A stretch of DNA of 64,000 nt from Candidatus Azotimanducaceae bacterium (GTDB lineage: Bacteria; Pseudomonadota; Gammaproteobacteria; Pseudomonadales; Azotimanducaceae): positions 70 through 64,069 of the forward strand of contig CBDCPL010000001.1 in the NCBI GenBank assembly GCA_965220235.1, read 5' to 3'. Shown here piece after piece: positions 7,917 to 61,512 of the stretch; the first letter of the stretch is position 1, and every line of letters begins with the position of its first letter. The notes beneath the pieces are model-generated. The model had not been told where the DNA came from, did no database searches, and worked only from the letters and a program-made list of their open reading frames with translations. The position numbers and the translations under genes are program-made.

Positions 7917-7917
7917 C

Positions 7918-28057: not shown

Positions 28058-28355
28058 TCGTCTTTGTCTTCCGAGTCCTGCGTTTGATTGGCTGAGGTGG
28101 ATCCTCTGCTTCAGATTCCGCCTCGTCGACTACCTCGACCGATTCTGCCTCTTGGTACTCTTTTATCGGATCACCGTCATCCACGATAGCCTCGACCAGC
28201 AGAGAGTCAATCGACAGCTGGAAGTGATCAGTATCGGATTGTCGCCACGCCAGATACTCCGCTTGATCTATTTCGACACTATGACCTGGCGCGATGTTGG
28301 TCGATATGACTCTTACCAACGAATCGCCCGTATTCGTTATTTTGACTTTGCTCAT
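28047..28355 (-). CDS. hypothetical protein with an acidic C-terminal half
   Basis: 102-aa ORF with no SD. TAAAAT lies 8 nt upstream of the ATG. Confidence 0.5.
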   Translation of the reverse strand: MSKVKITNTGDSLVRVISTNIAPGHSVEIDQAEYLAWRQSDTDHFQLSIDSLLVEAIVDDGDPIKEYQEAESVEVVDEAESEAEDPPQPIKRRTRKTKTNGN

Positions 28356-28363
28356 GTCAGATT

Positions 28364-28369
28364 ATTTTA
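28364..28369 (-). promoter_or_regulatory. TAAAAT box 8 nt upstream of ATG 28355 (candidate leaderless late promoter)
   Basis: The minus strand reads GGTTAAAATAATCTGACATG. Confidence 0.35.
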
Positions 28370-28391
28370 ACCGATTGTTTCATGTGGAACG

Positions 28392-28742
28392 TCACTTCAC
28401 CCAGAACGTGCCTTTGAGTTCTTTACGCTTTTTGGCGATCCGCTTTAACTCCCGCCGCGCCCAGTGCTTGATGCAAAGTCCATCTTGGTACACCGACCAA
28501 CGACACCGCCTTGTCGGATCACCGAACATCGAATCTTTGCACTGCTCGACTGGATCCTCTTGGTAATCCATCACAGGCAGGCGGTTTTCTAGCTCTATCT
28601 GTTCCTCAAATGTCTTCTGCTTTGATCGCAGCTGAACTTTGCGAAGCGGGTTCTGTTGATGCAGTTTGGCGTGGCAAGATAGACACTTGCCACTAATATA
28701 TGACTCGTTCCAGCAACCTCTGGTGATGCACTTCCGCTCCAA
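28392..28742 (-). CDS. Cys-rich (zinc-binding-like) protein; start uncertain
   Basis: It has CxxxxC...CxxC...C...C..C..H cysteines and a TTG start directly after the upstream stop. Confidence 0.45.
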   Translation of the reverse strand: MERKCITRGCWNESYISGKCLSCHAKLHQQNPLRKVQLRSKQKTFEEQIELENRLPVMDYQEDPVEQCKDSMFGDPTRRCRWSVYQDGLCIKHWARRELKRIAKKRKELKGTFWVK

Positions 28743-28744
28743 AA

Positions 28745-30706
28745 TTAAGCAACACTTATACCGTTGGGCAACTTAGCTCGTTCGGCGGCAAGCTGAGCAA
28801 CCTTGTCCCAATCCTGATCATCTAGCGCGTCCGCTAGATCAACTGGAAACACTGCCTTCTTTAATCCACGATGCGCGTCCATCGGGCCAGGATCAACGAT
28901 GTGATCAACGAACTCGCTCTTAGCACCACGATAGGCGTTGTACAAGTTGTAGAAACGCAGATGGTATTGACCGTCGGGGCCTGCTTGCACGGGCACAATA
29001 GAACAATGCAGGTAGCGGTTGTATCGACCATACGGCAACACGCTCTTCCACTTGCGATCATTTTTATCAATATAGGTCGCCCGACCGCGTTGCCACTTCG
29101 CAAATCTCGGCTCGACAGGAACACCACGTCCGCCCTGTGAGGCTTGAGCCCAGATGTCTTGATCTCGCTTTCGACCGCCCTTTTGCGGGTGCAGGTACTG
29201 CACGCATGTCCGCCACGCATCCGCTCCGTTCTTCATGACACTCGGATGTTCCGCAACAAAGACTAGCCATGTAGTGTCGGCAACTGCTCGGCGCGGAAAT
29301 AAAACGACTTCGAGCAATACTGGTGGCGGTGGCACCTTCCCCTCGAGGACAGGTTGGATCGATTTAAGATAGGCAAACAGTTCCTTTTGCTCCTCGACCA
29401 ACTCCAGATACAGCTCCTTTGAGACTAACTCTGGCGGTGTCGCCATCGGATCATCGCCTGTAAGCATGTTGTCAAAATCGTTTTTTTTAGAAATCTCTTC
29501 GAGTGTGACTTCTTGGATCACCGGCACATCTGGCGGTGTTTCGGCAGGCGTGCTTTCCGCCCTTTCCGCCGCTTCGGTAAAAGGCTGTTCTAATTTATCG
29601 AGTGCCTCCGCAATCGGTCGCCAGCCGTGCCATACCTTGACGGATTTCCATGCTTCGCTGGCAGTGAATGCCTCTAATGAGCTGCTCACTTCTTCGCCAA
29701 AAGCAATTAAAACGCGAAGCCAGTTCTCGCCGTAGTTGCGGTCTTTGCGGTGCTTGTTCGCATCGTAGTATCCGTACACGGTATCTATGAGCGATTGAGG
29801 AACTTGGTGGGTGTTATCTTCGTTTTTTTCGAAGTTGGTCACCATTCGCTCGGTCGCAGGTCGACTCGGTGGATCGACCTCATTGGCTAAAGCATCGTAA
29901 ACTGGTTTCCACCCTTGATTTGGCATGATTAGCTCGACTACATCTAACGTCACACCGAACTTTGCGCAGACATCTCGGATTGCTTGCTGGTCTTGGGGAT
30001 CCACTGCGTCTACGGCAGTGGCAAACTCATTACTCAATACTGCGTCATTCGAGGCTACGACTCCGCCCGCGCGTGCCTGCGTCCAATGTCCGTACAACCA
30101 GCCACGATATTGATCGTAGTTGTAGCCTAACTGCGACGCAGCTCTCGACGATTCGCCCTCTTTGACCATCTGGATGAGGTGTTCGTAGACCTTGTTTTTG
30201 ATCGCCACATCCGACATACCATTGACTTCGATCACATACTTGCGCTCTTCTTCAAGCCATTCGATAAAGCCATCTCGGTGTTCGGGGGGAACGACAGGTT
30301 GCTTGAGCGTGTTGCCTTTCTCGTCGACCACGCGTCCGTCCACGTGCGTGCGGGTCGAGGTGTATGACCCACGCCCCATCTTGTCTTTCTCTGCTGGACT
30401 TAGTTGCTCGAACTTGACCCGCCCTTCTGCCTGCGTCTTGGTCATGCGGTATTGCTTGTAGTTCTTCCAGTCCCCCGTGTTCTCCGAAGCCTCAATGCAC
30501 GGTGCAATAGTCAGCCAAGGCTCGCCTCGATTGGCAGCTAACTCCCAAGCCTTATCCGTAGGCAGCGCTTCCACGCCACCGATATTACCGCCAAGAGCTT
30601 TCATGCACCGCTCGAACATGACATACTCAAACGATCCATACGGGTACTTGTTTCGCTGACCCAACAGCGAGTCCAGCAGACTGGATAAATCAGTCGTGTC
30701 AATCAT
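28745..30706 (-). CDS. Large protein of unknown function sharing a motif with 32068..33357
   Basis: 653 aa. YDANKHRKDRNYGENWLRVLIAFG...SEAWKSVKVWHGWRPIAEALDKLE parallels the 442-aa protein. Confidence 0.65.
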   Translation of the reverse strand: MIDTTDLSSLLDSLLGQRNKYPYGSFEYVMFERCMKALGGNIGGVEALPTDKAWELAANRGEPWLTIAPCIEASENTGDWKNYKQYRMTKTQAEGRVKFEQLSPAEKDKMGRGSYTSTRTHVDGRVVDEKGNTLKQPVVPPEHRDGFIEWLEEERKYVIEVNGMSDVAIKNKVYEHLIQMVKEGESSRAASQLGYNYDQYRGWLYGHWTQARAGGVVASNDAVLSNEFATAVDAVDPQDQQAIRDVCAKFGVTLDVVELIMPNQGWKPVYDALANEVDPPSRPATERMVTNFEKNEDNTHQVPQSLIDTVYGYYDANKHRKDRNYGENWLRVLIAFGEEVSSSLEAFTASEAWKSVKVWHGWRPIAEALDKLEQPFTEAAERAESTPAETPPDVPVIQEVTLEEISKKNDFDNMLTGDDPMATPPELVSKELYLELVEEQKELFAYLKSIQPVLEGKVPPPPVLLEVVLFPRRAVADTTWLVFVAEHPSVMKNGADAWRTCVQYLHPQKGGRKRDQDIWAQASQGGRGVPVEPRFAKWQRGRATYIDKNDRKWKSVLPYGRYNRYLHCSIVPVQAGPDGQYHLRFYNLYNAYRGAKSEFVDHIVDPGPMDAHRGLKKAVFPVDLADALDDQDWDKVAQLAAERAKLPNGISVA

Positions 30707-30931
30707 TTACAACGCTCTCTTTACGCTATATTTGTGCATTGCATCGTTAGCTATTCTGTTGTGCTCGACCAAACGGTTCAGGCATTCTGTCAGCGTTAGG
30801 TTTTCTTCTGCGTACAAGATATTGCATAGCCTGTTTAGCTTCTGACAATTCTCCGCGGTCAACCGATAATCAGTACCCTTCGGGTGATTCCTCTCAGTTC
30901 CAGTTGACATTTGAACTGCTTTCACAATCAT
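30707..30931 (-). CDS. hypothetical protein
   Basis: ATGA overlap with the upstream lipoprotein ORF. Confidence 0.5.
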   Translation of the reverse strand: MIVKAVQMSTGTERNHPKGTDYRLTAENCQKLNRLCNILYAEENLTLTECLNRLVEHNRIANDAMHKYSVKRAL

Positions 30932-31095
30932 TCGTCTTCCACCTGTGCCTTAATGCATCGTACCTTACGCTCGTGGTCGCTGATTTTCAGGCAATGCTCA
31001 ATCGCCGAGACGAACTCCGCTTCCTCTTGCCAGCGCTTGACCGTCGCGCAGCTACTTAGGAGGGCAACGACTACTATTCCAATGACTACTCTCAT
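30928..31095 (-). CDS. Small lipoprotein (55 aa)
   Basis: MRVVIGIVVVALLSSC carries the lipobox LSSC. The ATG at 31095 overlaps the nuclease stop (ATGA). Confidence 0.55.
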   Translation of the reverse strand: MRVVIGIVVVALLSSCATVKRWQEEAEFVSAIEHCLKISDHERKVRCIKAQVEDE

Positions 31096-31682
31096 TCCAT
31101 CTCCATCTCGGTAGATTCGCAACTTTCCAGTACTGCTTCCAAAGCGTCACGCTCTGCCGAGTCGATGGTCAGGGCGTACTTGCGCTTGACTTCGACGATA
31201 CGATTGACGTACCAGCACTCGTTTTCAAATGGCAACCATTCGGCAGCGTCTTTGTCGCACTTGCCCACGCCACGAGTTGCCTCGCGCGGATTACATCGAT
31301 TGACGTTCGGTGCGGCAAGCGTCAGATTGTCCAAATCCGTAGCGAAGTCTCGCTTAACCCAATCATCGTAAGCACACATTCCACTATCGTGTGCCTCGCT
31401 CCGAGCAACAATGTGTTCGATGTCAGTCTTGCGGATCGAGTCAAAATCTCGCTTGGTATAGGGGCCGTAAATTCGCCCGTCCTGCGCCGCAACGATCTTC
31501 TTTTCGACTGCTGGTGTGTAGTGGTAGTCCTTCGCGTTGTATGGCGAGCAGCGGTTCTCAGGTGCCACAACCAGTCCGTTCCAGGTCTCTTCGGCAAATG
31601 TCTTGATCGCCAGTGTGATGGCAACAGCGATGGCAAAAAAAGCAAATGGAACGGCAGCTTTCGTGAGGAGTTCTCGGATCAT
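31092..31682 (-). CDS. Exported His-Me finger nuclease (HNH/DUF1524-type)
   Basis: An N-terminal signal sequence (AVPFAFFAIAVAITLAIKTFA) is followed by RCSPY...TDIEHIVARSEAHDSGMC...DLDNLTLAAPNVNRCNP...AAEWLPFENECWY. Confidence 0.6.
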   Translation of the reverse strand: MIRELLTKAAVPFAFFAIAVAITLAIKTFAEETWNGLVVAPENRCSPYNAKDYHYTPAVEKKIVAAQDGRIYGPYTKRDFDSIRKTDIEHIVARSEAHDSGMCAYDDWVKRDFATDLDNLTLAAPNVNRCNPREATRGVGKCDKDAAEWLPFENECWYVNRIVEVKRKYALTIDSAERDALEAVLESCESTEMEME

Positions 31683-32062
31683 TTTTTACCCTTTGGTGTC
31701 GGTAATGGCTTCTGCCCGGTCTGGAAATACGCGGCAATGAAATACGAATAAGGCATGGCAATCGCCGCAATCATAGCGGCAACATCAAAGCCTTCCGGCG
31801 CGGCTGGAGTCATGCTGTACTCTACCACCTGCCACAACAAAACGAAAAATCCAAGCAGTATCAGGCGGGGGATGATCCGTAGGCGGTCAAGAGCATCGCC
31901 AAGACGATGGTAGAAACGCTTGCCCTGTTCGTCGAGTGCCTCTTCCAGCTCATCAATCTTGGATTCGAGTTCATCTTTCTCAGTCTCGTACTCACGAGCA
32001 ATCGCAAAGATCGCCTCGATGTCGCCCTTCTCTTTCGCGATATTGAGGTCAATAGTAGTCAC
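31679..32062 (-). CDS. Membrane protein (N-terminal coiled coil plus two predicted TM helices)
   Basis: Hydrophobic stretches IIPRLILLGFFVLLWQVV and VAAMIAAIAMPYSYFIAAYF. Confidence 0.55.
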   Translation of the reverse strand: MTTIDLNIAKEKGDIEAIFAIAREYETEKDELESKIDELEEALDEQGKRFYHRLGDALDRLRIIPRLILLGFFVLLWQVVEYSMTPAAPEGFDVAAMIAAIAMPYSYFIAAYFQTGQKPLPTPKGKK

Positions 32063-32067
32063 GCTAA

Positions 32068-33357: not shown

Positions 33358-33748
33358 TGTCTTGCTTCCCCTTTTGAGCGTCGATCGACTTCTCATAATA
33401 TTCGATTATGGCAGTATTGTCCACCGAATATCTGATCAGCTCTTCAATGGTCTCGGACAGTTGCTCGTAGCCGTCGGCATCGAGGCAGACCAGCGCCACT
33501 CCGTTAAGACGTGGATCGTCCTGCGTGACGACCAAGAAATCAGGTGCAGGTACGGTAACGGGAGTCGGGCGTTCGGGCTGGCGGATCGCAGGGCAATACT
33601 GCTCTGGCACCAAGACCTCTTTGACCTCCGTTTCTGGTTCGGGGAACAGGCTTACGCCGCAACCAGATATAAAAATGAGAGCAGCCGTGCATGTGGAAGA
33701 CACAGCTGCTCTCTCGAGCCAATGTGCGAAGTGGCTTAATAGTCGCAC
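33350..33748 (-). CDS. Outer-membrane spanin-like lipoprotein (o-spanin); start uncertain
   Basis: Lipobox LIFISGC followed by a Pro-rich region. It is the last gene of the lysis cassette. Confidence 0.5.
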   Translation of the reverse strand: MRLLSHFAHWLERAAVSSTCTAALIFISGCGVSLFPEPETEVKEVLVPEQYCPAIRQPERPTPVTVPAPDFLVVTQDDPRLNGVALVCLDADGYEQLSETIEELIRYSVDNTAIIEYYEKSIDAQKGKQDNE

Positions 33749-33770
33749 TAGGATATTGTCAGTAATTGTA

Positions 33771-34151
33771 TCAATCGCATTCGAGGGGATTTTCGATCTC
33801 CTGCCCGCCCGTAGCGTGCGCGATGCGGTTGGCTACTTTATCGGATGCTCGGTTGATGCGGCATTCGCTGTCCACTGGATCGGCTAGCAATCGCTCGTTA
33901 AAGCCTTGAAACGCCCTGCGGTAATGATCTCGCTCGGCGATTGCCTTATCGCGCTCTTCCCGCAGTGTATTCAAATCGGTCAACTGCCGTTCGTAGTGGA
34001 GAGTTGTTTGCTCGATCTTCGCGCTGAGTCCATCGGACAGCAGCTCCTGAGCTGCGATCTCGGCTTGTAGCGATTGAATGTGTCTCTGGGTGAAGTATCC
34101 CGCCCCTGCAATCACAATGAGGAACAGGGCAAGGACTAGAAAAGCCTTCAA
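33771..34151 (-). CDS. Inner-membrane spanin-like protein (i-spanin)
   Basis: N-terminal TM (MKAFLVLALFLIVIAGAGYF) followed by a coiled coil. Confidence 0.5.
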   Translation of the reverse strand: MKAFLVLALFLIVIAGAGYFTQRHIQSLQAEIAAQELLSDGLSAKIEQTTLHYERQLTDLNTLREERDKAIAERDHYRRAFQGFNERLLADPVDSECRINRASDKVANRIAHATGGQEIENPLECD

Positions 34152-35616: not shown

Positions 35617-35897
35617 GGGTTTACTAGTCTTGGTGGTTTTTCGATGGTAATTTGGCGGAATGGCTCTTGATCATCGATAAAAAGTTCAGTATCGTCGACC
35701 AATGTTGCCCATATTCGCTTTCGGAGAGGCCCAACTCGGTACTTTTTGACCAAATATTCGGATTCCGCCTCCGCGAAACGCCAACCTGACCGCACAATTT
35801 TGACTCTGATCGGTCGTTCGGCACGAGATTTCCAAAACCACTGGCGTGGTACGCACTTTTTGAGCCATCTTTTGAGCCGTCTTAGCGATTTCCTCAC
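35595..35897 (-). CDS. hypothetical basic protein
   Basis: 100-aa ORF. Confidence 0.45.
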   Translation of the reverse strand: MRKSLRRLKRWLKKCVPRQWFWKSRAERPIRVKIVRSGWRFAEAESEYLVKKYRVGPLRKRIWATLVDDTELFIDDQEPFRQITIEKPPRLVNPWTKDSK

Positions 35898-36319
35898 TAA
35901 GACATGCGGTAAAACGTCAATTTGGCGTTGCCGAGCGTGGCGTTACTGCTCGAAGCCATCACATTTCCGCTTGGGCCGAAGCCAATACCTATCGTAACTG
36001 CATCGTAGCGGAACGTAACCGCGTTATCGTCGTCCCTTGCATCGCCTTCGGTAGCGTTATCTACGCCCAAAATGTCATCTGCGAGAAATGTAGCCAGCTC
36101 ACGCGGCCCGCCGTTGCCGACGGCGATAGAAACGAAGATCAAACCACGCCCCTGCAGTTCACGTCGGTGGACTGCGCCGTCCGAATTGGCATGCGCTTCG
36201 AGTTGATTAGCGGTGTAGCTATTGCCTGCGGTGAAAGCAAAGGTACTAGAGTCGATCCGAACCATTGTCGGATTGCCCTTGCCATGAAAAATAGCGTTAG
36301 GATTGCTGTCGTAAGCCAT
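35897..36319 (-). CDS. hypothetical protein
   Basis: The ATG follows AGGAGATCAATC. Confidence 0.55.
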   Translation of the reverse strand: MAYDSNPNAIFHGKGNPTMVRIDSSTFAFTAGNSYTANQLEAHANSDGAVHRRELQGRGLIFVSIAVGNGGPRELATFLADDILGVDNATEGDARDDDNAVTFRYDAVTIGIGFGPSGNVMASSSNATLGNAKLTFYRMS

Positions 36320-36355
36320 GATTGATCTCCTGCGGTCTCCTAAATTTTATCCAGT

Positions 36356-36658: not shown

Positions 36659-36661
36659 GGT

Positions 36662-38736: not shown

Positions 38737-38739
38737 TCG

Positions 38740-42852: not shown

Positions 42853-42864
42853 GGAGAGGTCTCC

Positions 42865-47724: not shown

Positions 47725-47735
47725 AGCTCCCCCAC

Positions 47736-49676: not shown

Positions 49677-49687
49677 AGTCTATGCTC

Positions 49688-50752
49688 CTAAGATGAGATG
49701 TGCCGAGCCGACAGATCGAGTCGACGTTGCGAGACTAGCTGATTCATGTCCACGCCGACAGGTGTCCTGTTAGGATTGCTACCCGTAGGCTGTGGATCGA
49801 TAGGTGGAACCTCTCGGCGTTCGAGGATCCCTTCGACTTTCGCCTGCAGATAGTCCTCAGACCGACCTTCGGCATCCTCCACTTCTTCGCCAACCGCCGC
49901 GACCAGTATCTCTTTCATGGACTTGTCAGCGGTGTCGAAATCTTGTGGTAACAGTGATCGCACATTGACGATCAGTTCTGCTCGTTGCTCTGCCTCTTTA
50001 ATGATGTTGGCGCGTTCTTCGGCAGCTAACTTTTCCGATTCCTCACGCTCACGCTCGGCTTTTTCGGCGGCTTCTTTCGCTTCGTCGCGTGCAGCTAAGG
50101 CACTATCAACCTGATCTTTCACGTGCGACTCGACTTCATCCGAGACCGCTTCGACCACGCTGGTTCGAATCATCTCGACGTCGATTTTCGCACCGTCCCC
50201 TGCCTCGATCTTCGCGAGTACGCTTTCGAGTTTCGCATCGATCATCTCAGATAGTTTCTCGTTATCCATCGCTTGTTGTCCTCTGGATGTAACCTTTGAT
50301 GCCTTATACACAGGCTTGTCAACTAAGCCGATCCCTACGAGATCAGCTTTCTCGATTATGGTGATTGTACCTGAACTGTCCTTTTCTTCCCGATATTCCT
50401 TCGGCATGAACTCAATTGAAAAACCGCGCAAGACCTTCGTGCGCACCAGTTCCATAGCATCCCTGCCCGCCTGCGTATCAGGTAATTCGGCGTTCAGGCG
50501 CATGGCATCAGGATCGTCAATCAGCGTTAAACCGCCACCGCGTGTCCTGCACAATGGCGTGCGGTGGTCGTGTTGCATGTTCAGCACCACGTCCAGTTTA
50601 GATACATCGCCAAATGCTCCAGACTCAAACCGCTCGCGGTAGCCATCGTACAGTTTGCCGATGTCACCATAGGTGATCACAGTGCCGGTGAGCTTACGCT
50701 CCTCGACGTAGTCGAACCGAACGAACCGCTTTTGTACTTGGTCTAGATCCAT
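49688..50752 (-). CDS. Prohead protease (HK97/S78 family) fused to a coiled-coil scaffold-like C-terminal domain
   Basis: RERFESGAFGD...LNMQHD...LRGFSIEF is followed by EAKEAAEKAEREREESEKLAAEE. Confidence 0.75.
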   Translation of the reverse strand: MDLDQVQKRFVRFDYVEERKLTGTVITYGDIGKLYDGYRERFESGAFGDVSKLDVVLNMQHDHRTPLCRTRGGGLTLIDDPDAMRLNAELPDTQAGRDAMELVRTKVLRGFSIEFMPKEYREEKDSSGTITIIEKADLVGIGLVDKPVYKASKVTSRGQQAMDNEKLSEMIDAKLESVLAKIEAGDGAKIDVEMIRTSVVEAVSDEVESHVKDQVDSALAARDEAKEAAEKAEREREESEKLAAEERANIIKEAEQRAELIVNVRSLLPQDFDTADKSMKEILVAAVGEEVEDAEGRSEDYLQAKVEGILERREVPPIDPQPTGSNPNRTPVGVDMNQLVSQRRLDLSARHISS

Positions 50753-50759
50753 GCTAGGA

Positions 50760-50765
50760 ATTTTA
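50760..50765 (-). promoter_or_regulatory. TAAAAT box 7 nt upstream of ATG 50752 (candidate leaderless late promoter)
   Basis: The minus strand reads GCAATAAAATTCCTAGCATG. There is no SD. Confidence 0.4.
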
Positions 50766-50785
50766 TTGCATTCGCGTTTTTTGGC

Positions 50786-50814
50786 TTGACTATGTTTTTA
50801 AGTTTTATTAAAAT
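50786..50814 (+). promoter_or_regulatory. Sigma70-type promoter TTGACT-17 nt-TAAAAT
   Basis: TTGACT lies at 50786-50791 and TAAAAT at 50809-50814, upstream of 50849..51112. Confidence 0.55.
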
Positions 50815-50848
50815 CAAGGCGTGAATCTCTAACTAGCGATAGGTAATA

Positions 50849-51112
50849 ATGGCAAGCGAATTAACGCCAGACCCGTGGGAGTACCCGCCCGAATTGCGGA
50901 ATAAGCGCAAGGACTACACTTACGAGGAGTTTATCGATCTCGTTGACAACTACAAAGTGAAATTTGGCGAGAGCATCCCTCTTGGCTACGGCATCAACGA
51001 GGTCGCTGCACCCGTGGTCGCCTACGCGATGGAAACGGACGACCCGAAGTTCTTTAACGACTGGGCGGATCAGGTCATGTCCCGCTCCGCAGAACACGGG
51101 CTGGTATTCTGA
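50849..51112 (+). CDS. hypothetical protein
   Basis: 87-aa ORF downstream of the promoter. Confidence 0.55.
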   Translation: MASELTPDPWEYPPELRNKRKDYTYEEFIDLVDNYKVKFGESIPLGYGINEVAAPVVAYAMETDDPKFFNDWADQVMSRSAEHGLVF

Positions 51113-51311
51113 TGGCAGACAACGACCGCTTCTCCTCACCTATCGGTATTGGACTGATACGCGATAAAGACGGCAACTTCAAGGGAAATCCATCTGCGTA
51201 TGAAATCGAGGTTGGATCGATTGCTAGGACTCAAGGCAGCGGCAAAAACGCACGAGGAGTTTGTTAAAGCTAATAAAGCGTATTACGACTTTATAGAAAT
51301 TAACCAGCCCG

Positions 51312-51578
51312 ATGAGTGATCGCTACGTAGTCGAAGTTGTTAACGGCGAGGATCGGTATGTCGCCTACGGACTAGACCCCGAACACCTACGCATGTACCG
51401 CCGTGAGACCAACGACTACCATCGCCGTACTAACATCTGGTTTCCATCCTGCACGAAGTTCATGCCTTACGCGTGGGTGGGTGAGCGCGTCAAAATGACC
51501 GTTGAGGCAATTGAGAAGAAGTACGGCGAACGACTTGGGATGTACGAAGAGCAATCGTTCGAATCCGAATCCAGTTAG
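51312..51578 (+). CDS. hypothetical protein
   Basis: 88-aa ORF. Confidence 0.55.
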   Translation: MSDRYVVEVVNGEDRYVAYGLDPEHLRMYRRETNDYHRRTNIWFPSCTKFMPYAWVGERVKMTVEAIEKKYGERLGMYEEQSFESESS

Positions 51579-51606
51579 GCTTTTACTCCGCCATTTCGCG
51601 TATCGG

Positions 51607-54600: not shown

Positions 54601-55374
54601 CGGCACCGGCTCAGGAATCACTTCGTCGCTGTCGATCTTCTTGATGCTCTTCTTATCAACTGCAGGCTGGGCGACGCAGCGACATTGGATCGCCTGACCA
54701 GGCAACTCATCCGCCTGCGCGTACGAGTACATCACGCCCTCTCGTACTTGATGCTCTGGTCGAACACGCTCATCACCTGATGTCCGCCAGATAAAGTGAG
54801 TGATCCCGCACTGTTTGTGCCGCATCTCGGTCAGGTTGCCGTTGATCTTGCTCGTCTGATCCCGCGTGACTCGCCTGAGCGCATAGCCATCGTACGTGAA
54901 TTCCTGGCGCATCACCTTCTTGAGTTCGTACTCGTCGAACGGCGCATCTTCAAAAGTGTCGGCTATTTTTTTAGCCAAGCGAGCCTTCCCGCGCTCAGGC
55001 ACGAGGCGAACAAGGTCAGCGTTCTCTATGACCTTGCCTTTGATGTACTCCCGAACTTCAGGCTCCAGCAACATCGCTCGAATGTCCACGCCAAGAGCCG
55101 ACTGGAACGTCTGGATCATCTTCTGACGGTTGTAGCTGCTTATCCGATCCAAGTGCGTTTGAATGAGTCCAGTCCGCACCCCCGGTACATCTTGAGCGAC
55201 GAACTCGGTGTAGCCTTCGTCAAGGTAGATCAGGGCTTGCTTTACCGCCGATGCCTTCGCCAATTTGCGCTGGATCGTCGTGTGGTAGTTGCCGAGAAAG
55301 CTGTTTCTCAGCGACTTGTTGTAGTCGTTTGCCTGTTTGACGAGCGGCTTAACCGCCGTTGGGTTGCGAGCCAC
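51607..55374 (-). CDS. Polyvalent head-associated protein: MuF/SPP1 gp7 domain plus a zincin (HExxH) metallopeptidase-like domain plus a ~800-aa uncharacterised C-terminus
   Basis: The MuF motif IWRTSGDERVRPEH is at aa 195-208, and HEFGH is at aa 351-355 (nt 54310-54324). The gene is immediately downstream of the portal. Confidence 0.75.
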   Translation of the reverse strand: MARNPTAVKPLVKQANDYNKSLRNSFLGNYHTTIQRKLAKASAVKQALIYLDEGYTEFVAQDVPGVRTGLIQTHLDRISSYNRQKMIQTFQSALGVDIRAMLLEPEVREYIKGKVIENADLVRLVPERGKARLAKKIADTFEDAPFDEYELKKVMRQEFTYDGYALRRVTRDQTSKINGNLTEMRHKQCGITHFIWRTSGDERVRPEHQVREGVMYSYAQADELPGQAIQCRCVAQPAVDKKSIKKIDSDEVIPEPVPQAIKPLPPSTDLPNARTWADVDSLAGQRTSLEVSYHEESWWDINSLAARVAGKSKPLSEVRQNPRKGAYHYQRHIEMGEYPVNEVRGQGVWRHEFGHHIDYDLGAKYQIRPPKKGLRNKFGDRPMSLTEPFQKARKADSKRMINGSKNSDALDARNKEFSEIASAAVRRKELDDLATRLDLPVDDLNQYMEYFSYFKAEGLTQLDKDVLMHRLLIGLEEGDVQGVLDAFFRQNWYTLELAKDRDKYERMYSALMKVWEGNLNALSDTADALSNGRVTSVFRHSTSYYSQRGASYRLSEAFANGVQANGAGRTADKIYQLMFPEYHKELIKVLKRELGIVDTDAGEMVLGALKVDAERLQRVTNTIQIIANDEAWVRIHNLIPLAKDGVVELGYPARKVLVEAMEEIKSLGDEYIGKNSLETFDNMLKELRDSLDDIAVKADDVLDIASETKYIDDMVASISQKQSSIDVDDFVDKYRDEIVKAGDDGVFAADEVSQVVAHLDEISPPKLLDDLDEAPVPESAAPRLESPRVRLEPEVERLDLKDYNKQRIVREIDDPDSWWQKAIDDDRGVYSADEVAEAKNHKAKIQAAFSDLDADVQKFAKIDDVAEALAETFSETNTAQYMAIRAKDITRAIKDNEFKTYAQTKKGGSKITVDERFARERDMFHLDADDIKPENMDNLPKYGFVSDADQIATDKIVGIGYGENYVKFKPSVRAKSTMTMDDSLDGNKAGYKINPAVPMNEIDSELLASWAMRRSEGSIDDYMTKKLAKWGETKYRGDLEDVFYSSYTETQIYGKLTLADVDTILVESKSQAVKLRKALDKAGFEDVKIGTSGQNERLKHIWEDTDPTDSHSFSPKDIDALGDKYVDTIFVHHAHYITDDLYDFDVPPSIRDIRIKIIDAGGPSRQIYDVPMPDKREFLKEYARLAALKEEGGLPKDFYKRYKVNQAGFTDDVLDDQLLEAYPKGGLKTRDLTHEEITGKPAPKPKVEVEPDVPT

Positions 55375-56812
55375 CTGATCCGTTACCGTTCATGCCCACG
55401 CCGAATCCACCATCCATGTCCATGTCAAGCGGTTCCGGAGCATCGCCTTCAAGTTCGCCAAAGAGCCAATCGCCCCGCAACGAGTCCCTTGCCTCGTCCT
55501 CGTCTACCATGCTCGATCCGACCGCCGCCACCAATGCATCTACCTTGATCTTCGATGTCTCCGCCCGCTCTTTATCGCCCAGCTCGATCAGCGATTGCCA
55601 CTCGTATTCCAGTGGCTCAGCAAGCCCGCAGTGCTTGGCGATGATCTGATCGTAGAGGTAAAGCGGATCCCGCAGCATTTTCTCGCGGTTCGCCTCTAGC
55701 ATGGCGACATAGTTTCGCATATCGCTCTCGCCCGTCGCGCTCATGCCCGTAGGAGGATTGCCGAGAAAGCGCGTCTGCGGTATGTCTGCCGCTGCTGCCA
55801 ACGTAGAGTACGACCGATCCACCAAGTCCGCCAAGCCAGCGAAATTGACCGCTACGCGATTGAACTCCTCTCGGCTCTTATGATCGAGCATCATGATGCG
55901 GTACATGGACTTCGCCGCATTGATCTGCATACCGATCTCGGATGGCGTTACATCCGTTGGGTTAAGTCCAGCAATCGTCTCCCGTAGACCTTCGATGTGG
56001 AGGATCGGTATTGAGGCTTCCTGCGTCATGTGCGAGATTCCGCTCGATAACTGGGTCGCCCGCATGATGTCGCCGATGATTGGGATCAACTCCGACTCGC
56101 CAAAATCTTGGTTGTAGTAAGTGAAACCGCTCTTCGTAGGCGGTCTCTGCCCATCAAAACGGATCACGCGCGAAGCGTGGATGCGGAAAGGAGCGTTATA
56201 CGGAGGCGTGGCGCTATACATTAGCGGCTCGCCATATGTGGGTGAATACGGATCGTGATTACGCTCGACAACATCGATGTCGTAGCGATCCAAATAGAGA
56301 AACGACTTGAGGTCGCCCTCCTTAATACGATCCAGCATGAGCGGTTCGTCTGGTGCTGCGTCCATGAGCATCGGTACGACCACGCCCGTGCCGTATTGCC
56401 GAGCTGCGATCATGGCGTTACGGAGAGCGTCCAGTCCCTTGAGTTCTCGCTCCGCCATCTCCACCGCTTCTTTGGCTGACTCATCATCGTCCATACAGGC
56501 GCGCCAGCGAATGAACATGTCATCCACCGGAATGCGAACAAACTTCTTCGCCGCCCACGACTGCACGCACAGGATTTCAAGCGGTTCGCGCGAGTAAATA
56601 CGGGTCGGCAGGAATACCGAATCTTCGGATTTATCGAGACTCGTCCCCATGCCCGTTTTCTGGTTGACCAGACCGCCAGACATGAGCGAACTGACACCGT
56701 AGTAATCTCTGCGACCACGCCCCCCGAACGCTCGCTCTACGATTTGCAGATCACGGCGTCTGCGCGCCCAGTTGAGTCCAGACTGCACAGCGCGTGTTAA
56801 AGGGTTCGGCAT
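55349..56812 (-). CDS. Portal protein (DUF1073-type)
   Basis: I take the start as ATG 56812 (MPNPLTRAV); the track ORF to 56998 is over-extended. Size, the position upstream of MuF and the pattern LEILCVQSWAAKKFVRIPVDDM support the call. Confidence 0.7.
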   Translation of the reverse strand: MPNPLTRAVQSGLNWARRRRDLQIVERAFGGRGRRDYYGVSSLMSGGLVNQKTGMGTSLDKSEDSVFLPTRIYSREPLEILCVQSWAAKKFVRIPVDDMFIRWRACMDDDESAKEAVEMAERELKGLDALRNAMIAARQYGTGVVVPMLMDAAPDEPLMLDRIKEGDLKSFLYLDRYDIDVVERNHDPYSPTYGEPLMYSATPPYNAPFRIHASRVIRFDGQRPPTKSGFTYYNQDFGESELIPIIGDIMRATQLSSGISHMTQEASIPILHIEGLRETIAGLNPTDVTPSEIGMQINAAKSMYRIMMLDHKSREEFNRVAVNFAGLADLVDRSYSTLAAAADIPQTRFLGNPPTGMSATGESDMRNYVAMLEANREKMLRDPLYLYDQIIAKHCGLAEPLEYEWQSLIELGDKERAETSKIKVDALVAAVGSSMVDEDEARDSLRGDWLFGELEGDAPEPLDMDMDGGFGVGMNGNGSGGSQPNGG

Positions 56813-56819
56813 AATTCGT

Positions 56820-56825
56820 ATTTTA
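56820..56825 (-). promoter_or_regulatory. TAAAAT box 7 nt upstream of portal ATG 56812 (candidate leaderless late promoter)
   Basis: The minus strand reads CTCAATAAAATACGAATTATG. There is no SD. Confidence 0.4.
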
Positions 56826-56839
56826 TTGAGTTTGCGATC

Positions 56840-57742
56840 ATGCCTAACGCCGCGCTCATCGCTGGAAAGCAAACGGTCATACAAGGACTCGAAGGCGGGT
56901 ACGATGCGTTCTCCGATACCAGCCACCGGTTGCAGACCCGTACCGGCACCGCTCCGCTCGAATCTGGAGCGCAAATCACCGACCATGCCGTTGCACAACC
57001 AATCGAACTCACGCTCTCTGGTGTTGTCTCCGATCTAACAGTCAACGGGCAGGGGCGCGCCCGCGAAGCGTGGGGTACGATCCTCAAAAACTGGAAAGAG
57101 GTCGAGACCTTCTCCGTCGTCACGCCTTGGGTCGTCTATCCACAGATGATCATCCAAGAGCTGACCGCACCCGAATCAGGATTCGGATTCAATTTCACCC
57201 TCAAACTGGTCGAGATACAACTGGTCGGACAGGACGATGTAGTGCCGTCATTCCAGGCACTCGCACCTGCGATCAACCGACAGCCATTGCAACAGTTCGG
57301 TACGGTCGCCAATATCTCCCCCCTTAACTTCGATCTAGCACAGCAGGAGTTCAACGATTCGCCTCCGCTCAAAGCATCCAACAACCCGCTGGACTGGCTC
57401 AAGCGCACCAACGAAAAAGTGAATAACTTCATTGGCGCGCTCGCCGACAACGACTTGATCAACCGCGCCAGAGAGATCAACGATGTATTCGGGACGGGAA
57501 TACTCAGCAAAGTAACCGATATGAGCGGACTCAATTCGTTTTTAGAAGATCTCGACTCCGAAGTGGCTAGCGGAAACTACACGCGCATGCAGGCGGACGA
57601 GGCAATCGACCAGATCGGGCGGGCGAAAGACCTGATCACCGAGACCGTCAACGATCTCAATTCGCGGCGCAAACATGACTTGAATAACTTTGTGGACATC
57701 AACTACGATCCGAACGCCACTCCGTTCGCCGGCGTAGCCTAA
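56840..57742 (+). CDS. Structural-type protein with a Dit/tail-hub-like N-terminal domain (weak call)
   Basis: ITDHAVAQPIELTLSGVVSD...FSVVTPWVVYPQMIIQELT...FNFTLKLVEIQLV resembles N-terminal domains of tail hub/adaptor proteins. Confidence 0.3.
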   Translation: MPNAALIAGKQTVIQGLEGGYDAFSDTSHRLQTRTGTAPLESGAQITDHAVAQPIELTLSGVVSDLTVNGQGRAREAWGTILKNWKEVETFSVVTPWVVYPQMIIQELTAPESGFGFNFTLKLVEIQLVGQDDVVPSFQALAPAINRQPLQQFGTVANISPLNFDLAQQEFNDSPPLKASNNPLDWLKRTNEKVNNFIGALADNDLINRAREINDVFGTGILSKVTDMSGLNSFLEDLDSEVASGNYTRMQADEAIDQIGRAKDLITETVNDLNSRRKHDLNNFVDINYDPNATPFAGVA

Positions 57743-60216
57743 CGCTGAGACAGTCCCCTGCGAGCATCGTAGGAGAACGCCATGATCACCGCATCATAAA
57801 TATCAGGAGACGGCGGCTCCACCGAAGAGCCAGGTGCTTTCGGTTGTTTTTCAATCTTCACCTTGCCCGTGCGATCCGTCCATTCGGGTTGCGCCATCTC
57901 CGCCAACACCGACGATAAATTCGGCAATGCTGGGTTGATGAACAGGCAGTTATCGGGATCCACCGAAGTGTCGCCATTGTGAAGGCGTACCGTATTGTCC
58001 GCGCGCATGCGTACCGCCCATCCTGCTTGACTCGCCCAGTTCGCAAAATATTGCTTATTGGTCGCTGGCTTCGTGCCGCGCAGGAATGGTATGTCTGGCG
58101 ATTGAACCTCGCCACCGAAACGACAGCCATCGTAGTGAAACTTGTTGTTGCCTTCCACGATCCAGTCCCGTAACGGCCCGCGAATACCTGCTCCAGGCCC
58201 GCCCGCATCGTAATACAAACGAGTCACACCTTCTGCTGAGCAATAGGCAGCTGCCTTTCTCGCCGTCTCGGAGGTCGTGAACTTGATCGATCCTTTCCAG
58301 GTATCGACATAAAACAACTCCGGCCCGCTCCGCACAGCGAACGCATTGTTGTCGCTGCCCGTGTCTGCCACATCCAGACCCGCCATCGTGAACGCACCGC
58401 GCGTCGGTCGCTTGTCCCACGCCTCGACACAGATGCGGAGCATCTCGTAGGTCATTACCTTTTGGCGATCCGATGTATCGTCTGGTTCGCCTTCCCAAAT
58501 GTGCAGATAGCGATGCGGTTCGGTTTGCTCGCACAATCGACGTTCCAGATCGAGTTCTCTCGGAAACCATGGGTTAGCGTCCCAATTGACCTTCCGCACC
58601 TCCGCGTTCTCAATCTTCTGCATCACGAACGTCTGCCACGCCGTATCGGTACGATTCTTCGGGTTAAAGGTGATCCATATCTCACTGCCTGCGGCTCGGA
58701 TCGTCGGCGCTAGCAGCTCCCATGTCTGCCGTGAGAGCGTGTGTCCCTCCTCGACCCAGCAGATGTCGACGTCCTCCCAGCCCTTGATCGAGTCCCGCAT
58801 GCGCTCAAGACCTCGAAAGAAGAAGTGCGATCCGTTTTTGCCCTCTATCGTCGACGATCGGATCACGAAAAACGACTCCAAACCCATGCGATAGATCAAC
58901 TGCTTGATGGTTTGGAACGCAGACTCCTCCAGTGAGTTTTGAAACTCCCGCGTACAGGCGACACGGATCGGTCGTTCGGTCGCCATCAGGATCAGACTGG
59001 CACAGACCGAATAGGTGTTATGCGTAGCTATCATCGAACGTCCAGCAAGAAAGAGTCCATCTGGCGAATCAACGGTAATGCAAGTCATTTCCGCCTTTGA
59101 TCCCGTTCTCCTTACACCGTTGATCATTCGGGCCTTGATCCTGTTCTTTTGCTTCAGTTTAGGTCGTATGCGAACTCGCTTGCGGGGGATGCGGCAGCAC
59201 CGAATGTCAGGAAAGAACTCTACATGATAGGCAGTACCCACAACGCGACCGTAATATTTAGCTGGTGTATCACGAAACGAACATTTGATTCCCAACGAAA
59301 CAACCAGCTCATATATATCCTGCGCCAAACATTCTCTCGTACTCGTTATACCGGCGCTGCTTCCATCTTTATCAACTGTGCCATCCGTGTCCATTAGCCC
59401 CGCCAACAATGACCACCTCTGATTCTCGGACGCTCGAAGATACGACACCGGAATGTGTTTATTTTTTAGCAAATCCAACTGCTTCAGTCGGTAATGAAAA
59501 CTCTTGTCGTCTCCCTTTTTGCCGCGGGTGATAGGATACGATGGTGCTGAATCATTTGCGGAACAAGGTCTTGCCGGGTGCAACGTCTCTCCACCCGCCT
59601 CGAACATTGCCTTGAAGTGTGGATAGTCGATTTTGCTAACAGTCAACGCAGATTGACTGGAAACACCATCGCCAAGCCACGCCCCTAATACATACGGATC
59701 AATCAGAAGCGTAGCGTCTGGTGATTGAAGCGCTGGAGCGATAGGTATGGCGTACTCGTTGTCGCCTCGATAAACGTGCTTATATGTCTTACTTATCTCA
59801 TCCGTCGTTTTGATTTCCAAGTCCTCAAAACGATACCCGAACCCGCGCCGATTCATTCGTTTTCGGTAGAGTCGATTACACACCGCCCATAAATGATCTC
59901 CATCACAATAGATCGTTTCACCAAAAGAGAAATCCATCGCCCATTCGTCTTTGACTCCCTGCGGATGAACCGCTAGCACCTTGACAGGCTTGCCGTCTGA
60001 GCCATAGACCATATCGCCTGATCGCAGATCACCCATTGCAGTCCAACCGTTAGGCGTCGCAATACGGGTGTCGTTTCGTAACGCCTTCCCGCTACCACGT
60101 CCGCCATACAAGACCTTGAATCGCTTAGGTTGTCTGAGGAATTTCGCCCATGTGGGCAACTGGAAGTTGCTCTCTACTTCAGGCGCTCGGTCGAGAACCG
60201 CTAACTGACCTGACAC
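57739..60216 (-). CDS. terL: Terminase large subunit, interrupted by an intein in the Walker A loop
   Basis: GGRGSGK | intein | TYSVCASLIL. Downstream are REFQNSLEES, DICWVEEG (Walker B) and ITFNP. GTG start at 60216. Confidence 0.85.
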   Translation of the reverse strand: MSGQLAVLDRAPEVESNFQLPTWAKFLRQPKRFKVLYGGRGSGKALRNDTRIATPNGWTAMGDLRSGDMVYGSDGKPVKVLAVHPQGVKDEWAMDFSFGETIYCDGDHLWAVCNRLYRKRMNRRGFGYRFEDLEIKTTDEISKTYKHVYRGDNEYAIPIAPALQSPDATLLIDPYVLGAWLGDGVSSQSALTVSKIDYPHFKAMFEAGGETLHPARPCSANDSAPSYPITRGKKGDDKSFHYRLKQLDLLKNKHIPVSYLRASENQRWSLLAGLMDTDGTVDKDGSSAGITSTRECLAQDIYELVVSLGIKCSFRDTPAKYYGRVVGTAYHVEFFPDIRCCRIPRKRVRIRPKLKQKNRIKARMINGVRRTGSKAEMTCITVDSPDGLFLAGRSMIATHNTYSVCASLILMATERPIRVACTREFQNSLEESAFQTIKQLIYRMGLESFFVIRSSTIEGKNGSHFFFRGLERMRDSIKGWEDVDICWVEEGHTLSRQTWELLAPTIRAAGSEIWITFNPKNRTDTAWQTFVMQKIENAEVRKVNWDANPWFPRELDLERRLCEQTEPHRYLHIWEGEPDDTSDRQKVMTYEMLRICVEAWDKRPTRGAFTMAGLDVADTGSDNNAFAVRSGPELFYVDTWKGSIKFTTSETARKAAAYCSAEGVTRLYYDAGGPGAGIRGPLRDWIVEGNNKFHYDGCRFGGEVQSPDIPFLRGTKPATNKQYFANWASQAGWAVRMRADNTVRLHNGDTSVDPDNCLFINPALPNLSSVLAEMAQPEWTDRTGKVKIEKQPKAPGSSVEPPSPDIYDAVIMAFSYDARRGLSQR
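59017..60084 (-). mobile_element. Intein (356 aa, class-3-like, Ala1 ... THN/T+1) with a LAGLIDADG homing endonuclease domain
   Basis: Block A is ALRNDTRIATPNG. Block B (DGDHLW) has Trp at B:12. Block F (MTCITVD) has Cys at F:4. Block G is IATHN followed by Thr+1. The LAGLIDADG motifs are LGAWLGDG and LLAGLMDTDG. Confidence 0.75.
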
Positions 60217-60368
60217 TAGAAAGTGACTACACCGAGAAAATAACCAGCAGGTACGCCTATCATCAAGCCGATCCAGAAGCCACCGAGAACGCAGGCTTGG
60301 ATCGTTTTTCTAAGCCGCGTCCTTTCGACTGTAATCGGGTCTTGCCATACAGTTGCCTCGCTCGTCAT
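60216..60368 (-). CDS. Small membrane protein (50 aa, below the ORF-track cut-off)
   Basis: My own translation: MTSEATVWQDPITVERTRLRKTIQACVLGGFWIGLMIGVPAGYFLGVVTF. It has an ATGA overlap with the ParB stop, and its stop overlaps the TerL GTG. Confidence 0.5.
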   Translation of the reverse strand: MTSEATVWQDPITVERTRLRKTIQACVLGGFWIGLMIGVPAGYFLGVVTF

Positions 60369-60985
60369 GCGATCAACTCGTCCAGCCGTTGCCACACCTC
60401 GCTTTGATCGTCCTTCGTCTTTTGCTCAAAACGATTCCATTTCTCCACGAAACTGTACGGAGCGGTGAAGCCAAGCCGCACCAAATAATCGTCGGGATTG
60501 ACTTTTGGATCCAACGGCTCGACCGCCTCATCGGTGGCAGGATCATCCACTTCGCCATTCGTGTTCAGGTCGACGTTCGTCGTGTAACTCGACTCCATCA
60601 CCACCTCGTTGCTGATATTGAGCGTGTCCCGCACCAGCGCCAACATGGTCGGGTCGGTCAATTCTCCCAGCTCAATATCGAGTTTGGTCCAGTCCCACAC
60701 CGCCTGATCCGAGATCGAGTTGTCCAAGATACGCAGGGCGTTCGCCTCTTTCTCATCGAGATCGAGTTTCGCACACGGCACGCGCTCGTATCCTAACCGC
60801 TTCGCCGCTTCCAGTCGAGCGTGTCCAGCGATCACCACATTCGCACGATCAATCGCAATAGGCACCGCCCATCCGAATTGCTGGATCGACTGCATCAACT
60901 GCTTGATCTGCTCCTCGCTATGCTGGCGAGCATTGTTCTCGTATTCCCGCACCTCGCTTACGAGCGTGCTACGAACTTTCATCAA
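60365..60985 (-). CDS. ParB-like nuclease domain protein
   Basis: YENNARQHSEEQIKQLMQSIQQFGWAVPIAIDRANVVIAGHARLEAAKRLG. Confidence 0.75.
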   Translation of the reverse strand: MMKVRSTLVSEVREYENNARQHSEEQIKQLMQSIQQFGWAVPIAIDRANVVIAGHARLEAAKRLGYERVPCAKLDLDEKEANALRILDNSISDQAVWDWTKLDIELGELTDPTMLALVRDTLNISNEVVMESSYTTNVDLNTNGEVDDPATDEAVEPLDPKVNPDDYLVRLGFTAPYSFVEKWNRFEQKTKDDQSEVWQRLDELIA

Positions 60986-61490
60986 CTTCGATTAACTCCT
61001 GTGATTCTTCTTTCGCTTGTTCGGGCGCGCCCGCGTCTATGTACTCCACGATCACCTTCGGCGTGTCCGCAGGCACATCTTCGGGTGCGATGATTCTGCG
61101 GGCAAATTCGCCCGGTGAGACTCGTTCCAGTAGCCATGCACTCGCCTTCCAGTCTGGCGGACTCATACGCTTCATGATCCGCCGCTTCTGCGTCCCGTCA
61201 GGCAACATCTCGTTGATCACTTCGAGCGTCTCGTGCGGCTCAGTCGCGGCTCGCGCTATGTTTTGCAGGTGCGCAATCTTGAACGCCTGCTGGCTCTTTT
61301 TTATTCCGATGTGAAATTCAAAATGGTCGGGGTATTTATCCGGGTAATCACGCCCCCGATTCGACCACTCGATGAGAGTCGAATCCGCAATACCGACCGA
61401 TGCCGCCGCTTGTTTCATGGTCGCTCCACGCTCCATCGCAGAGAGTATGTCCCCCGCAATCTGTGTGTTAAAACGTGACTTTCGTGACAT
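60969..61490 (-). CDS. terS: Terminase small subunit
   Basis: It has an N-terminal HTH (MKQAAASVGIADSTLIEWSN) and WKASAWLLERVSPGEF, and lies upstream of TerL. Confidence 0.65.
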   Translation of the reverse strand: MSRKSRFNTQIAGDILSAMERGATMKQAAASVGIADSTLIEWSNRGRDYPDKYPDHFEFHIGIKKSQQAFKIAHLQNIARAATEPHETLEVINEMLPDGTQKRRIMKRMSPPDWKASAWLLERVSPGEFARRIIAPEDVPADTPKVIVEYIDAGAPEQAKEESQELIEVDESS

Positions 61491-61512
61491 GGTTTTTACA
61501 TTTTATTAAAAT
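61484..61512 (+). promoter_or_regulatory. Promoter GTGACA-17 nt-TAAAAT for the RHH gene
   Basis: GTGACA lies at 61484-61489 and TAAAAT at 61507-61512, back to back with the minus-strand TAAAAT box. Confidence 0.45.
61500..61505 (-). promoter_or_regulatory. TAAAAT box 9 nt upstream of TerS ATG 61490 (candidate leaderless late promoter)
   Basis: The minus strand reads TTAATAAAATGTAAAAACCATG. There is no SD. Confidence 0.35.

Follow-up and report, generated by a model that had tools for sequence, protein, structure and literature searches.

Short -10-to-ATG spacings at virion-unit heads of a gammaproteobacterial phage suggest leaderless first cistrons

The DNA analysed here (the window) is a stretch of 64,000 nucleotides (nt) from Candidatus Azotimanducaceae bacterium. 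The genome is in two contigs, and the window is positions 70-64069 of the second one (C2), or nearly all of its 64,160 bp. Judging by its genes, this contig is a myovirus-like phage genome. At five of the virion genes, a hexamer of the form TAnAAT (n is any base) lies just 6-9 nt before the ATG start codon, and this placement is far beyond chance. We propose that these boxes are probably sigma70-type -10 elements that give rise to leaderless or nearly leaderless first cistrons. A first-pass annotation, made from the sequence alone, had suggested leaderless late messages at these genes, and the leaderless part of the suggestion is supported by the statistics of the geometry, by spacers of 26-27 nt at two of the junctions, by conservation in relatives, and by a restriction to ATG starts. 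The sites are (Nk means k nt between the box and the ATG):

50760-50765, minus strand: protease box TAAAAT (within AATAAAAT), N7 before the ATG at 50750-50752; GCAATAAAAT-TCCTAGC-ATG
56820-56825, minus strand: portal box TAAAAT (within AATAAAAT), N7 before the ATG at 56810-56812; TCAATAAAAT-ACGAATT-ATG
61500-61505, minus strand: TerS box TAAAAT (within AATAAAAT), N9 before the ATG at 61488-61490; TTAATAAAAT-GTAAAAACC-ATG
28364-28369, minus strand: baseplate-block box TAAAAT, N8 before the ATG at 28355; GGTTAAAAT-AATCTGAC-ATG
18511-18516, plus strand: wedge-gene box, consensus TATAAT, N6 before the ATG at 18523; TATAAT-GATTTA-ATG

The sequences and coordinates of all five sites read as first noted. 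The first genes had been described as lacking a Shine-Dalgarno (SD) sequence, and indeed the 20 nt before each start contain no 4-mer of AGGAGG (0/5 sites). The boxes also lack a good -35, as had been stated: the best match to TTGACA at a spacer of 16-18 nt is at most 3/6. The TGn of an extended -10 is absent at the five window boxes. The start codon is ATG at 5/5 sites, and two of the sites share CGCRAAYNCAATAAAAT. The genes behind the boxes are:

49688-50752, minus strand: prohead protease (S78 type), first gene of the head unit; PHROG head maturation protease and major head families, and tblastn matches to phage prohead proteases
55349-56812, minus strand: portal (DUF1073/Phage_portal_3); phrog_146, E = 1e-83
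60969-61490, minus strand: TerS, the small terminase subunit; phrog_4102, E = 3.5e-15, with the match from residue 2
28047-28355, minus strand: first gene of a baseplate-proximal block, with a DUF2612/wedge domain two genes downstream
18523-18852, plus strand: inverted baseplate-wedge gene; phrog_120, baseplate wedge subunit

Comparison with homologues indicates that the start codons of portal, protease and TerS are correct. The portal start (ATG at 56812) is the one picked by the gene caller of the protein collection. The ~40 residues ahead of the first invariant block exist in all portal homologues, and a RAVQS-like segment is common near the N-terminus; a longer reading would run into the Dit-like gene next door. 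We also considered a portal start at Met44, and rejected it: homologues have the first 40 residues too, and these are partly conserved among them. In the proteases of the relatives (Peptidase_S78), a (V/I)QKRF motif lies 4-8 residues after the same ATG. For TerS, the family match runs from residue 2 onward. The starts at 28355 and 18523 were set by open reading frame (ORF) logic only.

The first-pass annotation had asked how often TAAAAT would precede ATG at a short distance by chance. We found 5 cases of TAAAAT-N6-9-ATG, against 1.2 expected, and 0/100 shuffles reach 5, so the pattern is above chance. As a word, TAAAAT is not over-represented (17 matches versus 18 expected), so the signal is in the placement and not in the word. 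The octamer AATAAAAT has exactly 3 copies in 128 kb (both strands), all on the minus strand and only at the protease, portal and TerS starts (N7-9); 13/100 shuffles reach that count. Widening the box to TAnAAT gives 29 boxes in the window, 5 of which sit N6-9 before the ATG of an ORF of 102-487 codons, and all five are gene starts. TAnAAT-N6-9-ATG thus occurs at 5/72 gene starts; when the 30 nt upstream of each of the 72 starts were shuffled with local composition preserved, the mean was 0.36 and the maximum was 4 in 5000 trials. A scan of spacings from N0 to N40 gave 5 matches at N6-9 and one other, at N24. In the window and its relatives together, only ATG starts show the N6-9 peak (15 ATG versus 1 GTG/TTG), and by a crude count GTG and TTG open ~40% of the long ORFs. 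Leaderless translation needs AUG, which matches the ATG-only peak. The match at N24 is a sixth -10-only box:

36344-36349, minus strand: TAAAAT, N24 before the ATG of the gene at 35897-36319, with AGGAG between and a leader of ~17 nt

Because this box is leadered, the -10-only class is not always leaderless.

We looked for the same geometry in seven metagenomic contigs (L002-L008; 146 kb scanned) whose portals are 48-68% identical to that of the window. They were found via a large protein collection and exact look-ups; portal searches of viral and genome contig collections gave no relative. Among the Pfam families of these uncultured relatives (58-80 kb) are ones named for Pseudomonas phage E217 and Vibrio phage XM1. 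Isolates are much further away: a megablast of 9 kb against phage records gave no match, and the closest isolate portals and proteases are ~30% identical. The junction flanks of the relatives do not align with the window, yet TAnAAT is still N6-9 before ATG. Across L002-L008, TAnAAT-Nk-ATG occurs 5, 2, 2 and 2 times at k = 6, 7, 8 and 9 (n = 11), versus 10 times in total over k = 10-40, and 9 or 10 of the 11 are real gene starts. The sites in the relatives, including weaker boxes, are:

L002 portal: CAATAAAAT-N6-ATG, 75 nt upstream of the called start and in frame
L002 Dit-like gene: TACAAT-N6-ATG, 31 nt from the portal ATG, on the opposite strand
L002 small gene divergent from the protease: TATAAT-N7-ATG
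L003 protease: TAGAAT-N6-ATG
L004 portal/Dit-like: palindrome TAGAATTCTA in a 20-nt spacer, with TAGAAT-N8-ATG one way and TAGAAT-N10-ATG the other
L004 protease: TAGAAT-N9-ATG
L005 portal: TACAAT-N6-ATG
L005 protease (weaker box): TAGACA-N17-TAGTAT-N6-ATG
L007 portal: TTGACA-N15-TGcTATAAT-N7-ATG
L007 protease (weaker box): TTGTCA-N18-TAAAGT-N6-ATG
L007 small divergent gene: TTGCCA-N18-TAAACT-N6-ATG
L008 small gene: TTGACA-N16-TAGAAT-N6-ATG

The portal of L002, the closest relative, is called 25 codons short (9926-10000), and the in-frame ATG restores the usual length of the N-terminus. In L004, the 20-nt spacer between the Dit-like gene and portal (9978-10003) is essentially a palindrome, GGTAGAATTCTACC, with a TAGAAT -10 on both strands.

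Some of the relatives have what the five window boxes lack. Five of their sites have a -35 of 5-6/6 at the right spacing, versus ~0.5 expected among 27 sites (a ~10x excess). By the usual standard for a sigma70 promoter (a -35 of at least 4-5/6, or a TGn), sites in L005, L007 and L008 qualify and the window boxes do not. The excess of -35 boxes, together with the kept spacing, implies that the sites are promoters, and that what is held constant is the spacing between -10 and ATG. Also, all four bases are seen at the third position of the box, but T1, A2 and T6 do not vary. A -10 hexamer is recognised in this way; an A/U-rich ribosome site is not.

The peak is confined to this group of phages, with a faint counterpart in the host. 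As a distant control, we scanned 80 IMG/VR loci (1.05 Mb) whose portals are ~30% identical: they have 3, 2, 0 and 0 matches at N6, N7, N8 and N9, against a background of ~1.4 per spacing, so the profile is flat. In the host chromosome (3.68 Mb, GC 51%), most TAnAAT-ATG pairs are at N24 or more, as expected for ordinary leaders. There is also a small but significant peak at N6-8 (~12 genes; TAAAAT is the commonest box, and they are mostly without a -35), so the host seems to use this design occasionally. The density of sites is ~20x higher in the phage. The host candidates include C1 735646 (plus strand), 1668625, 763834 and 2183609 (minus strand), where TAnAAT is 5-8 nt before ATG and the discriminator is G/C-rich (TCCGC(A/G)C, for instance). 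These appear to be a small group of leaderless-type genes that is native to the host. We also considered that the host might belong to a group that is rich in leaderless genes. We rejected this because its RecA is gammaproteobacterial and the chromosomal peak, at N6-8 only, is small. (The chromosomal RecA is 64-77% identical to RecAs from Pseudomonadales, Alcanivorax and unclassified Gammaproteobacteria; the host thus branches deeply within the Gammaproteobacteria.)

The arrangement of the genes also points to promoters at these sites. The virion module is on the minus strand but is broken by inverted genes on the plus strand: a gene for a ribbon-helix-helix (RHH) protein, a Dit-like gene, three small ORFs, and the wedge gene. 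The start codons at the divergent junctions are 48 nt apart for TerS/RHH, 27 nt for portal/Dit-like, 96 nt for protease/small ORFs, and 26 nt for wedge and its neighbour. Because the upstream gene is on the opposite strand, the protease, portal, TerS and wedge genes each need their own promoter, and at portal and wedge the spacers of 26-27 nt are too short to hold both a promoter and a leader. The remaining site is different: a same-strand ORF ends 36 nt before the gene at 28355, so this gene is not a proven unit head.

In the mechanism that we favour, the host RNA polymerase with sigma70 would recognise the -10 hexamer (TAnAAT), and the message would begin with the AUG itself or with a leader of 1-3 nt. 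Transcription most often starts at the 7th or 8th base past the hexamer, where a purine at +1 follows a pyrimidine at -1. At N6 (wedge) and N7 (protease, C/A; portal, T/A), the predicted start is the A of the ATG; at N8 (28355) and N9 (TerS), a leader of 0-3 nt is predicted. The first cistron of the TerS, portal, protease, baseplate-block and wedge units would then be read without an SD as a leaderless mRNA, and the downstream genes would use ordinary SD sites or coupling. The activity of the boxes, the positions of the 5' ends and leaderless initiation of the 70S type are all inferred from the sequence.

Several points weigh against this proposal. Leaderless translation is usually inefficient in Gammaproteobacteria. 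The window boxes have neither a -35 nor a TGn, which makes their strength uncertain; since there is no -35 in this phage, they may be weak or conditional. Leaders of 2-3 nt are possible at N8 and N9. By crude start calls, many internal genes of the window also lack a clear SD, so the missing SD alone is weak evidence. And the geometry is not universal in the relatives: the L003 portal has no box and is preceded by an uncalled 50-codon ORF, the L006 portal has no box, and the L002 protease has TAGAAT-N15-GTG instead.

At three of the divergent junctions, the predicted core promoters overlap or stand back-to-back. The features there are:

56840-57742, plus strand: Dit-like gene, inverted, between TerL and portal; phrog_817, E = 4e-20
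61539-61736, plus strand: gene for an RHH protein (CopG/Arc type, DNA-binding); Pfam RHH_1, E = 7.6e-7, above the cut-off; GAGG as SD
61484-61512, plus strand: predicted RHH promoter, GTGACA-N17-TAAAAT, sigma70-type, with a leader of ~20 nt; absent from the list in the first-pass annotation
50786-50814, plus strand: predicted promoter of the small ORFs, TTGACT-N17-TAAAAT, which would drive three inverted genes (50849-51578); back-to-back with the protease box
50849-51112, plus strand: gene for an 87-amino-acid protein beside the protease gene; kept in L003 and L004

At the portal/Dit-like junction, TATTTT on the plus strand (56819-56824) overlaps TAAAAT on the minus strand (56820-56825), and the -7 and -11 positions pair reciprocally. 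The core, TATTTTA, is near-symmetrical and possibly bidirectional, in that it could serve both strands. The predicted starts would be ~56813/56812 for portal (a leader of 0-1 nt) and ~56831 for the Dit-like gene (a leader of 9 nt). In L002-L004, this neighbour is called Dit_like and has the same position and orientation; its MPN start is conserved. Symmetrical bidirectional promoters of enterobacteria, as outlined in PMC10268837, have overlapping -10s and divergent starts 18 bp apart; the predicted starts of portal and the Dit-like gene are likewise ~18 bp apart (Warman et al. 2021, via PMC10268837). Unlike the promoters outlined there, this core would give rise to two mRNAs, each encoding a structural protein and having a leader of 0-9 nt. 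In the window, only this junction has the symmetrical geometry (overlapping -10s with reciprocal -7T/-11A). The TerS/RHH, protease/small-gene and L002 portal/Dit-like junctions are back-to-back instead of overlapping.

At the TerS/RHH junction, the two -10 boxes (minus strand 61500-61505, plus strand 61507-61512) form a 13-bp palindrome, ATTTTA-T-TAAAAT (61500-61512), and the -35 of the RHH promoter falls inside the first TerS codons. Given this overlap, two polymerases should exclude each other, and autoregulation by the RHH protein could free the TerS promoter. The gene beside the protease is divergent from it and encodes a family of 84-87 amino acids (30-42% identity; L003 20741-21001 and L004 19964-20218, both on the minus strand) with the motif M-x-x-P-DPWE-x-P. 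The 87-amino-acid protein has no match in Pfam or PHROG. Its AlphaFold model is a three-helix bundle (predicted local distance difference test, pLDDT, of 80) and has no PDB fold match at E < 1. The RHH protein, beside TerS, and the 87-amino-acid protein, beside the protease, are candidate regulators.

The first-pass annotation had also contrasted the boxes with early promoters at 1398, 6280, 8317 and 50786, and had read this as a division between early and late regulation. Besides 50786, described above, these are:

1398-1425, plus strand: early-type promoter TTGACA-N16-TAAAAT, with a leader of ~38 nt and AAGGAG as SD
6280-6308, plus strand: early-type promoter TTGACA-N17-TAAGAT, with a hairpin leader, AAAGGA as SD, and the ATG at 6345
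8317-8345, plus strand: early-type promoter TTGACA-N17-TAAGAT, in a duplicate cassette, with the ATG at 8384

The four promoters have -35 boxes, spacers of 16-17 nt and leaders of ~30-40 nt, as described. An SD (AAGGAG or AAAGGA) is present in the first three, but the leader at 50786 has only AGG. With the RHH promoter added, the five plus-strand promoters have -35 boxes of 5-6/6, leaders of 20-40 nt, and a recognisable SD in 4/5. The -10-only boxes all head virion genes, and the -35-bearing promoters head small plus-strand genes. The contrast in promoters and leaders is real within the window, but it does not show that a -10-only promoter is a late one: more distant relatives have full promoters at the same geometry, and the ~12 host genes are mostly without a -35. 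So the missing -35 may be a property of this type of promoter in this host, and not a mark of late genes.

These contrasts might instead reflect a dedicated late class that needs a phage factor. This would be an activator like Lpa of P1, C of Mu or Ogr of P2, or else a T4 gp55-like sigma that reads an extended form of the box, AATAAAAT. The late promoters of these phages (gp55 of T4 uses TATAAATA) have a good -10, no -35, and virion genes downstream. This would fit with the octamer AATAAAAT at three sites and CGCRAAYNCAATAAAAT at two, and with the RHH gene and the conserved 87-amino-acid gene adjoining two of the sites. However, in known late promoters the -10 is extended or is accompanied by a conserved extra box, and the leader usually has an SD; we found neither such a box nor a homologous factor. 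A search for a shared upstream box (like the -22 box of P1) gave only a weak A-A-Y, 5-7 nt upstream of five TAAAAT boxes, which is not kept in the relatives. As for T4, AATAAAAT is at 3/5 sites instead of TATAAATA. Moreover, the relatives use TAGAAT, TACAAT or TATAAT, several of them with an ordinary -35, and host genes of the same geometry mostly do without one. Pfam and PHROG scans of ~30 small proteins from the early and inverted units gave no sigma and no known activator (most of these proteins are without any annotation), and the 87-amino-acid protein has no informative fold match. We consider a dedicated phage factor unlikely.

Another explanation is that the boxes are not promoters at all. 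Transcription would read through from promoters far upstream, and the A/T stretch would serve as an SD-independent start (using ribosomal protein S1, for example) or have no role. The A/T content of the sites is high (53-80% over the last 30 nt), they have no -35 and no TGn in the window, and many other window genes also lack an obvious SD. We predicted no terminators between the units above the shuffle expectation, so read-through could occur. However, transcription into portal or wedge would have to cross a whole inverted gene antisense. Read-through also seems inconsistent with the relatives, where an invariant T1/A2/T6, a free third base, and a fixed 6-9 nt recur amid unrelated flanks, and where five sites have consensus -35s at the correct spacing. 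Nor would it account for the absence of the peak in other phages and its near absence in the host. We think this explanation is improbable. Finally, chance co-occurrence of an A/T-rich hexamer with starts in A/T-rich intergenic DNA might seem to fit with the unenriched word and with the shuffles that reach three copies of AATAAAAT, but given the placement statistics, the recurrence in seven relatives and the ATG restriction, it is very improbable.

If the boxes do produce leaderless messages, then lambda offers a proteobacterial precedent: the PRM-cI message, which Shean and Gottesman reportedly described in 1992, is said to start at the A of the AUG. As here, a weak promoter lies in a compact divergent control region. 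But cI is a single regulatory gene of a temperate phage, and it depends on an activator and a defined operator, while the sites in the window are at the heads of virion-gene units. The promoters of Thermus phage phiYS40 are reported to have an extended TGnTA -10. Much as we propose for the window, phiYS40 is reported to express later genes from -10-dominated promoters as leaderless mRNAs; it differs in its TGn -10, absent from the window boxes, and in that its host phylum is rich in leaderless genes, whereas the host here is a gammaproteobacterium. Its middle and late transcripts are described as leaderless in the account relayed by PMC4842269 (Sevostyanova et al. 2007). In bacteria, TANNNT at ~10 bp before the start codon is an accepted in-silico mark of leaderless genes (PMC3160421, PMC12340547), and leaderless expression is a common mode in Deinococcus-Thermus (PMC12340547). 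The "TA-led" genes of Actinobacteria and Deinococcus-Thermus (PMC3160421, PMC12340547, PMC4007540) resemble the phage sites: they have TANNNT or TAtaaT with the first T ~12-15 nt before the start, no SD, an AUG start, and often no recognisable -35. There, the design is a genome-wide habit (20-60% of genes); here, it is found at ~12 host genes and is concentrated at the heads of phage virion units. A transcription start site study of six Pseudomonas phages, including Pbunavirus 14-1, makes no mention of leaderless messages.

Leaderless genes with a -10 adjoining the ORF, leaderless phage messages, and -35-less phage promoters are thus known already. What is particular here is the host class, in which such messages are rare; the concentration at the points where an interrupted virion module restarts; the very compact and partly symmetrical divergent cores; and the preservation of the geometry across a diverged uncultured lineage. 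In Gammaproteobacteria, leaderless messages are treated as curiosities (lambda cI and a few regulators). If the 5' ends are as predicted, these phages would be a clean case of leaderless virion-gene expression in a class where SD-led initiation rules. They would also show how spacers of 20-50 nt can suffice to express a virion module that single inverted genes split up. For annotation, gene callers that look for an SD will mis-start such genes (as for the L002 portal), and a rule of -10-N6-9-ATG would correct their starts. The sites would be very small promoter/start modules, some of them bidirectional, and so possible parts for laboratory use.

More tentatively, and with considerable doubt, we can extend the proposal to the whole E217/XM1-like lineage of gammaproteobacterial myoviruses, whose virion-unit heads (portal, prohead protease, TerS and some baseplate genes) might be truly leaderless, expressed from minimal and in part symmetrical, bidirectional -10 cores in divergent spacers of 20-50 nt. 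With hosts in which leaderless translation is rare, such a design would be a deliberate device. It could set a low, SD-independent dosage, or couple virion genes to a late state of the translation apparatus. Competition between TerS and the strong, overlapping RHH promoter could then act as a switch from early to late expression.

The rest of the phage genome is consistent with a myovirus-like phage. Its genes include TerS, a ParB-like nuclease, an intein-bearing TerL, portal (DUF1073), a 1255-amino-acid MuF protein, the S78 prohead protease, the major capsid protein, and baseplate genes. We recognised no integrase or repressor in the window. Both ends of the contig are inside one helicase/primase-type gene (window 3-1124 and 63326-64000, both on the minus strand, with an AAA_25 domain at the window start), so the molecule is probably circular or circularly permuted and was cut in that gene.

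TerL (57739-60216, minus strand) has 825 amino acids, and an insertion of ~356 amino acids interrupts its Walker A motif (GGRGSGK / ALRNDT...THN / TYSV). The insertion is an intein whose first residue is Ala and whose middle part is homing-endonuclease-like. TerL starts with a GTG, which shares bases with the stop codon of a short ORF before it (TAGTG). Upstream of the RHH/TerS junction are two separate genes with VRR-NUC nuclease domains (61726-62154 and 62308-62694, both on the minus strand); the first of these converges on the RHH gene, and the ends of the two overlap by 11 nt.

We also noticed some accessory features in the relatives. In L006 (9950-10060), a tRNA-like sequence (GGTTCAATTCC...CGCTCCA) immediately precedes the protease promoter. 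In the packaging/head module of L007, a gene for peptide deformylase directly follows TerS (1256-1726). The same module in L004 contains a CsrA homologue (7858-8019) and, between the MuF gene and the protease, an IS1595-family transposase (16699-17661).

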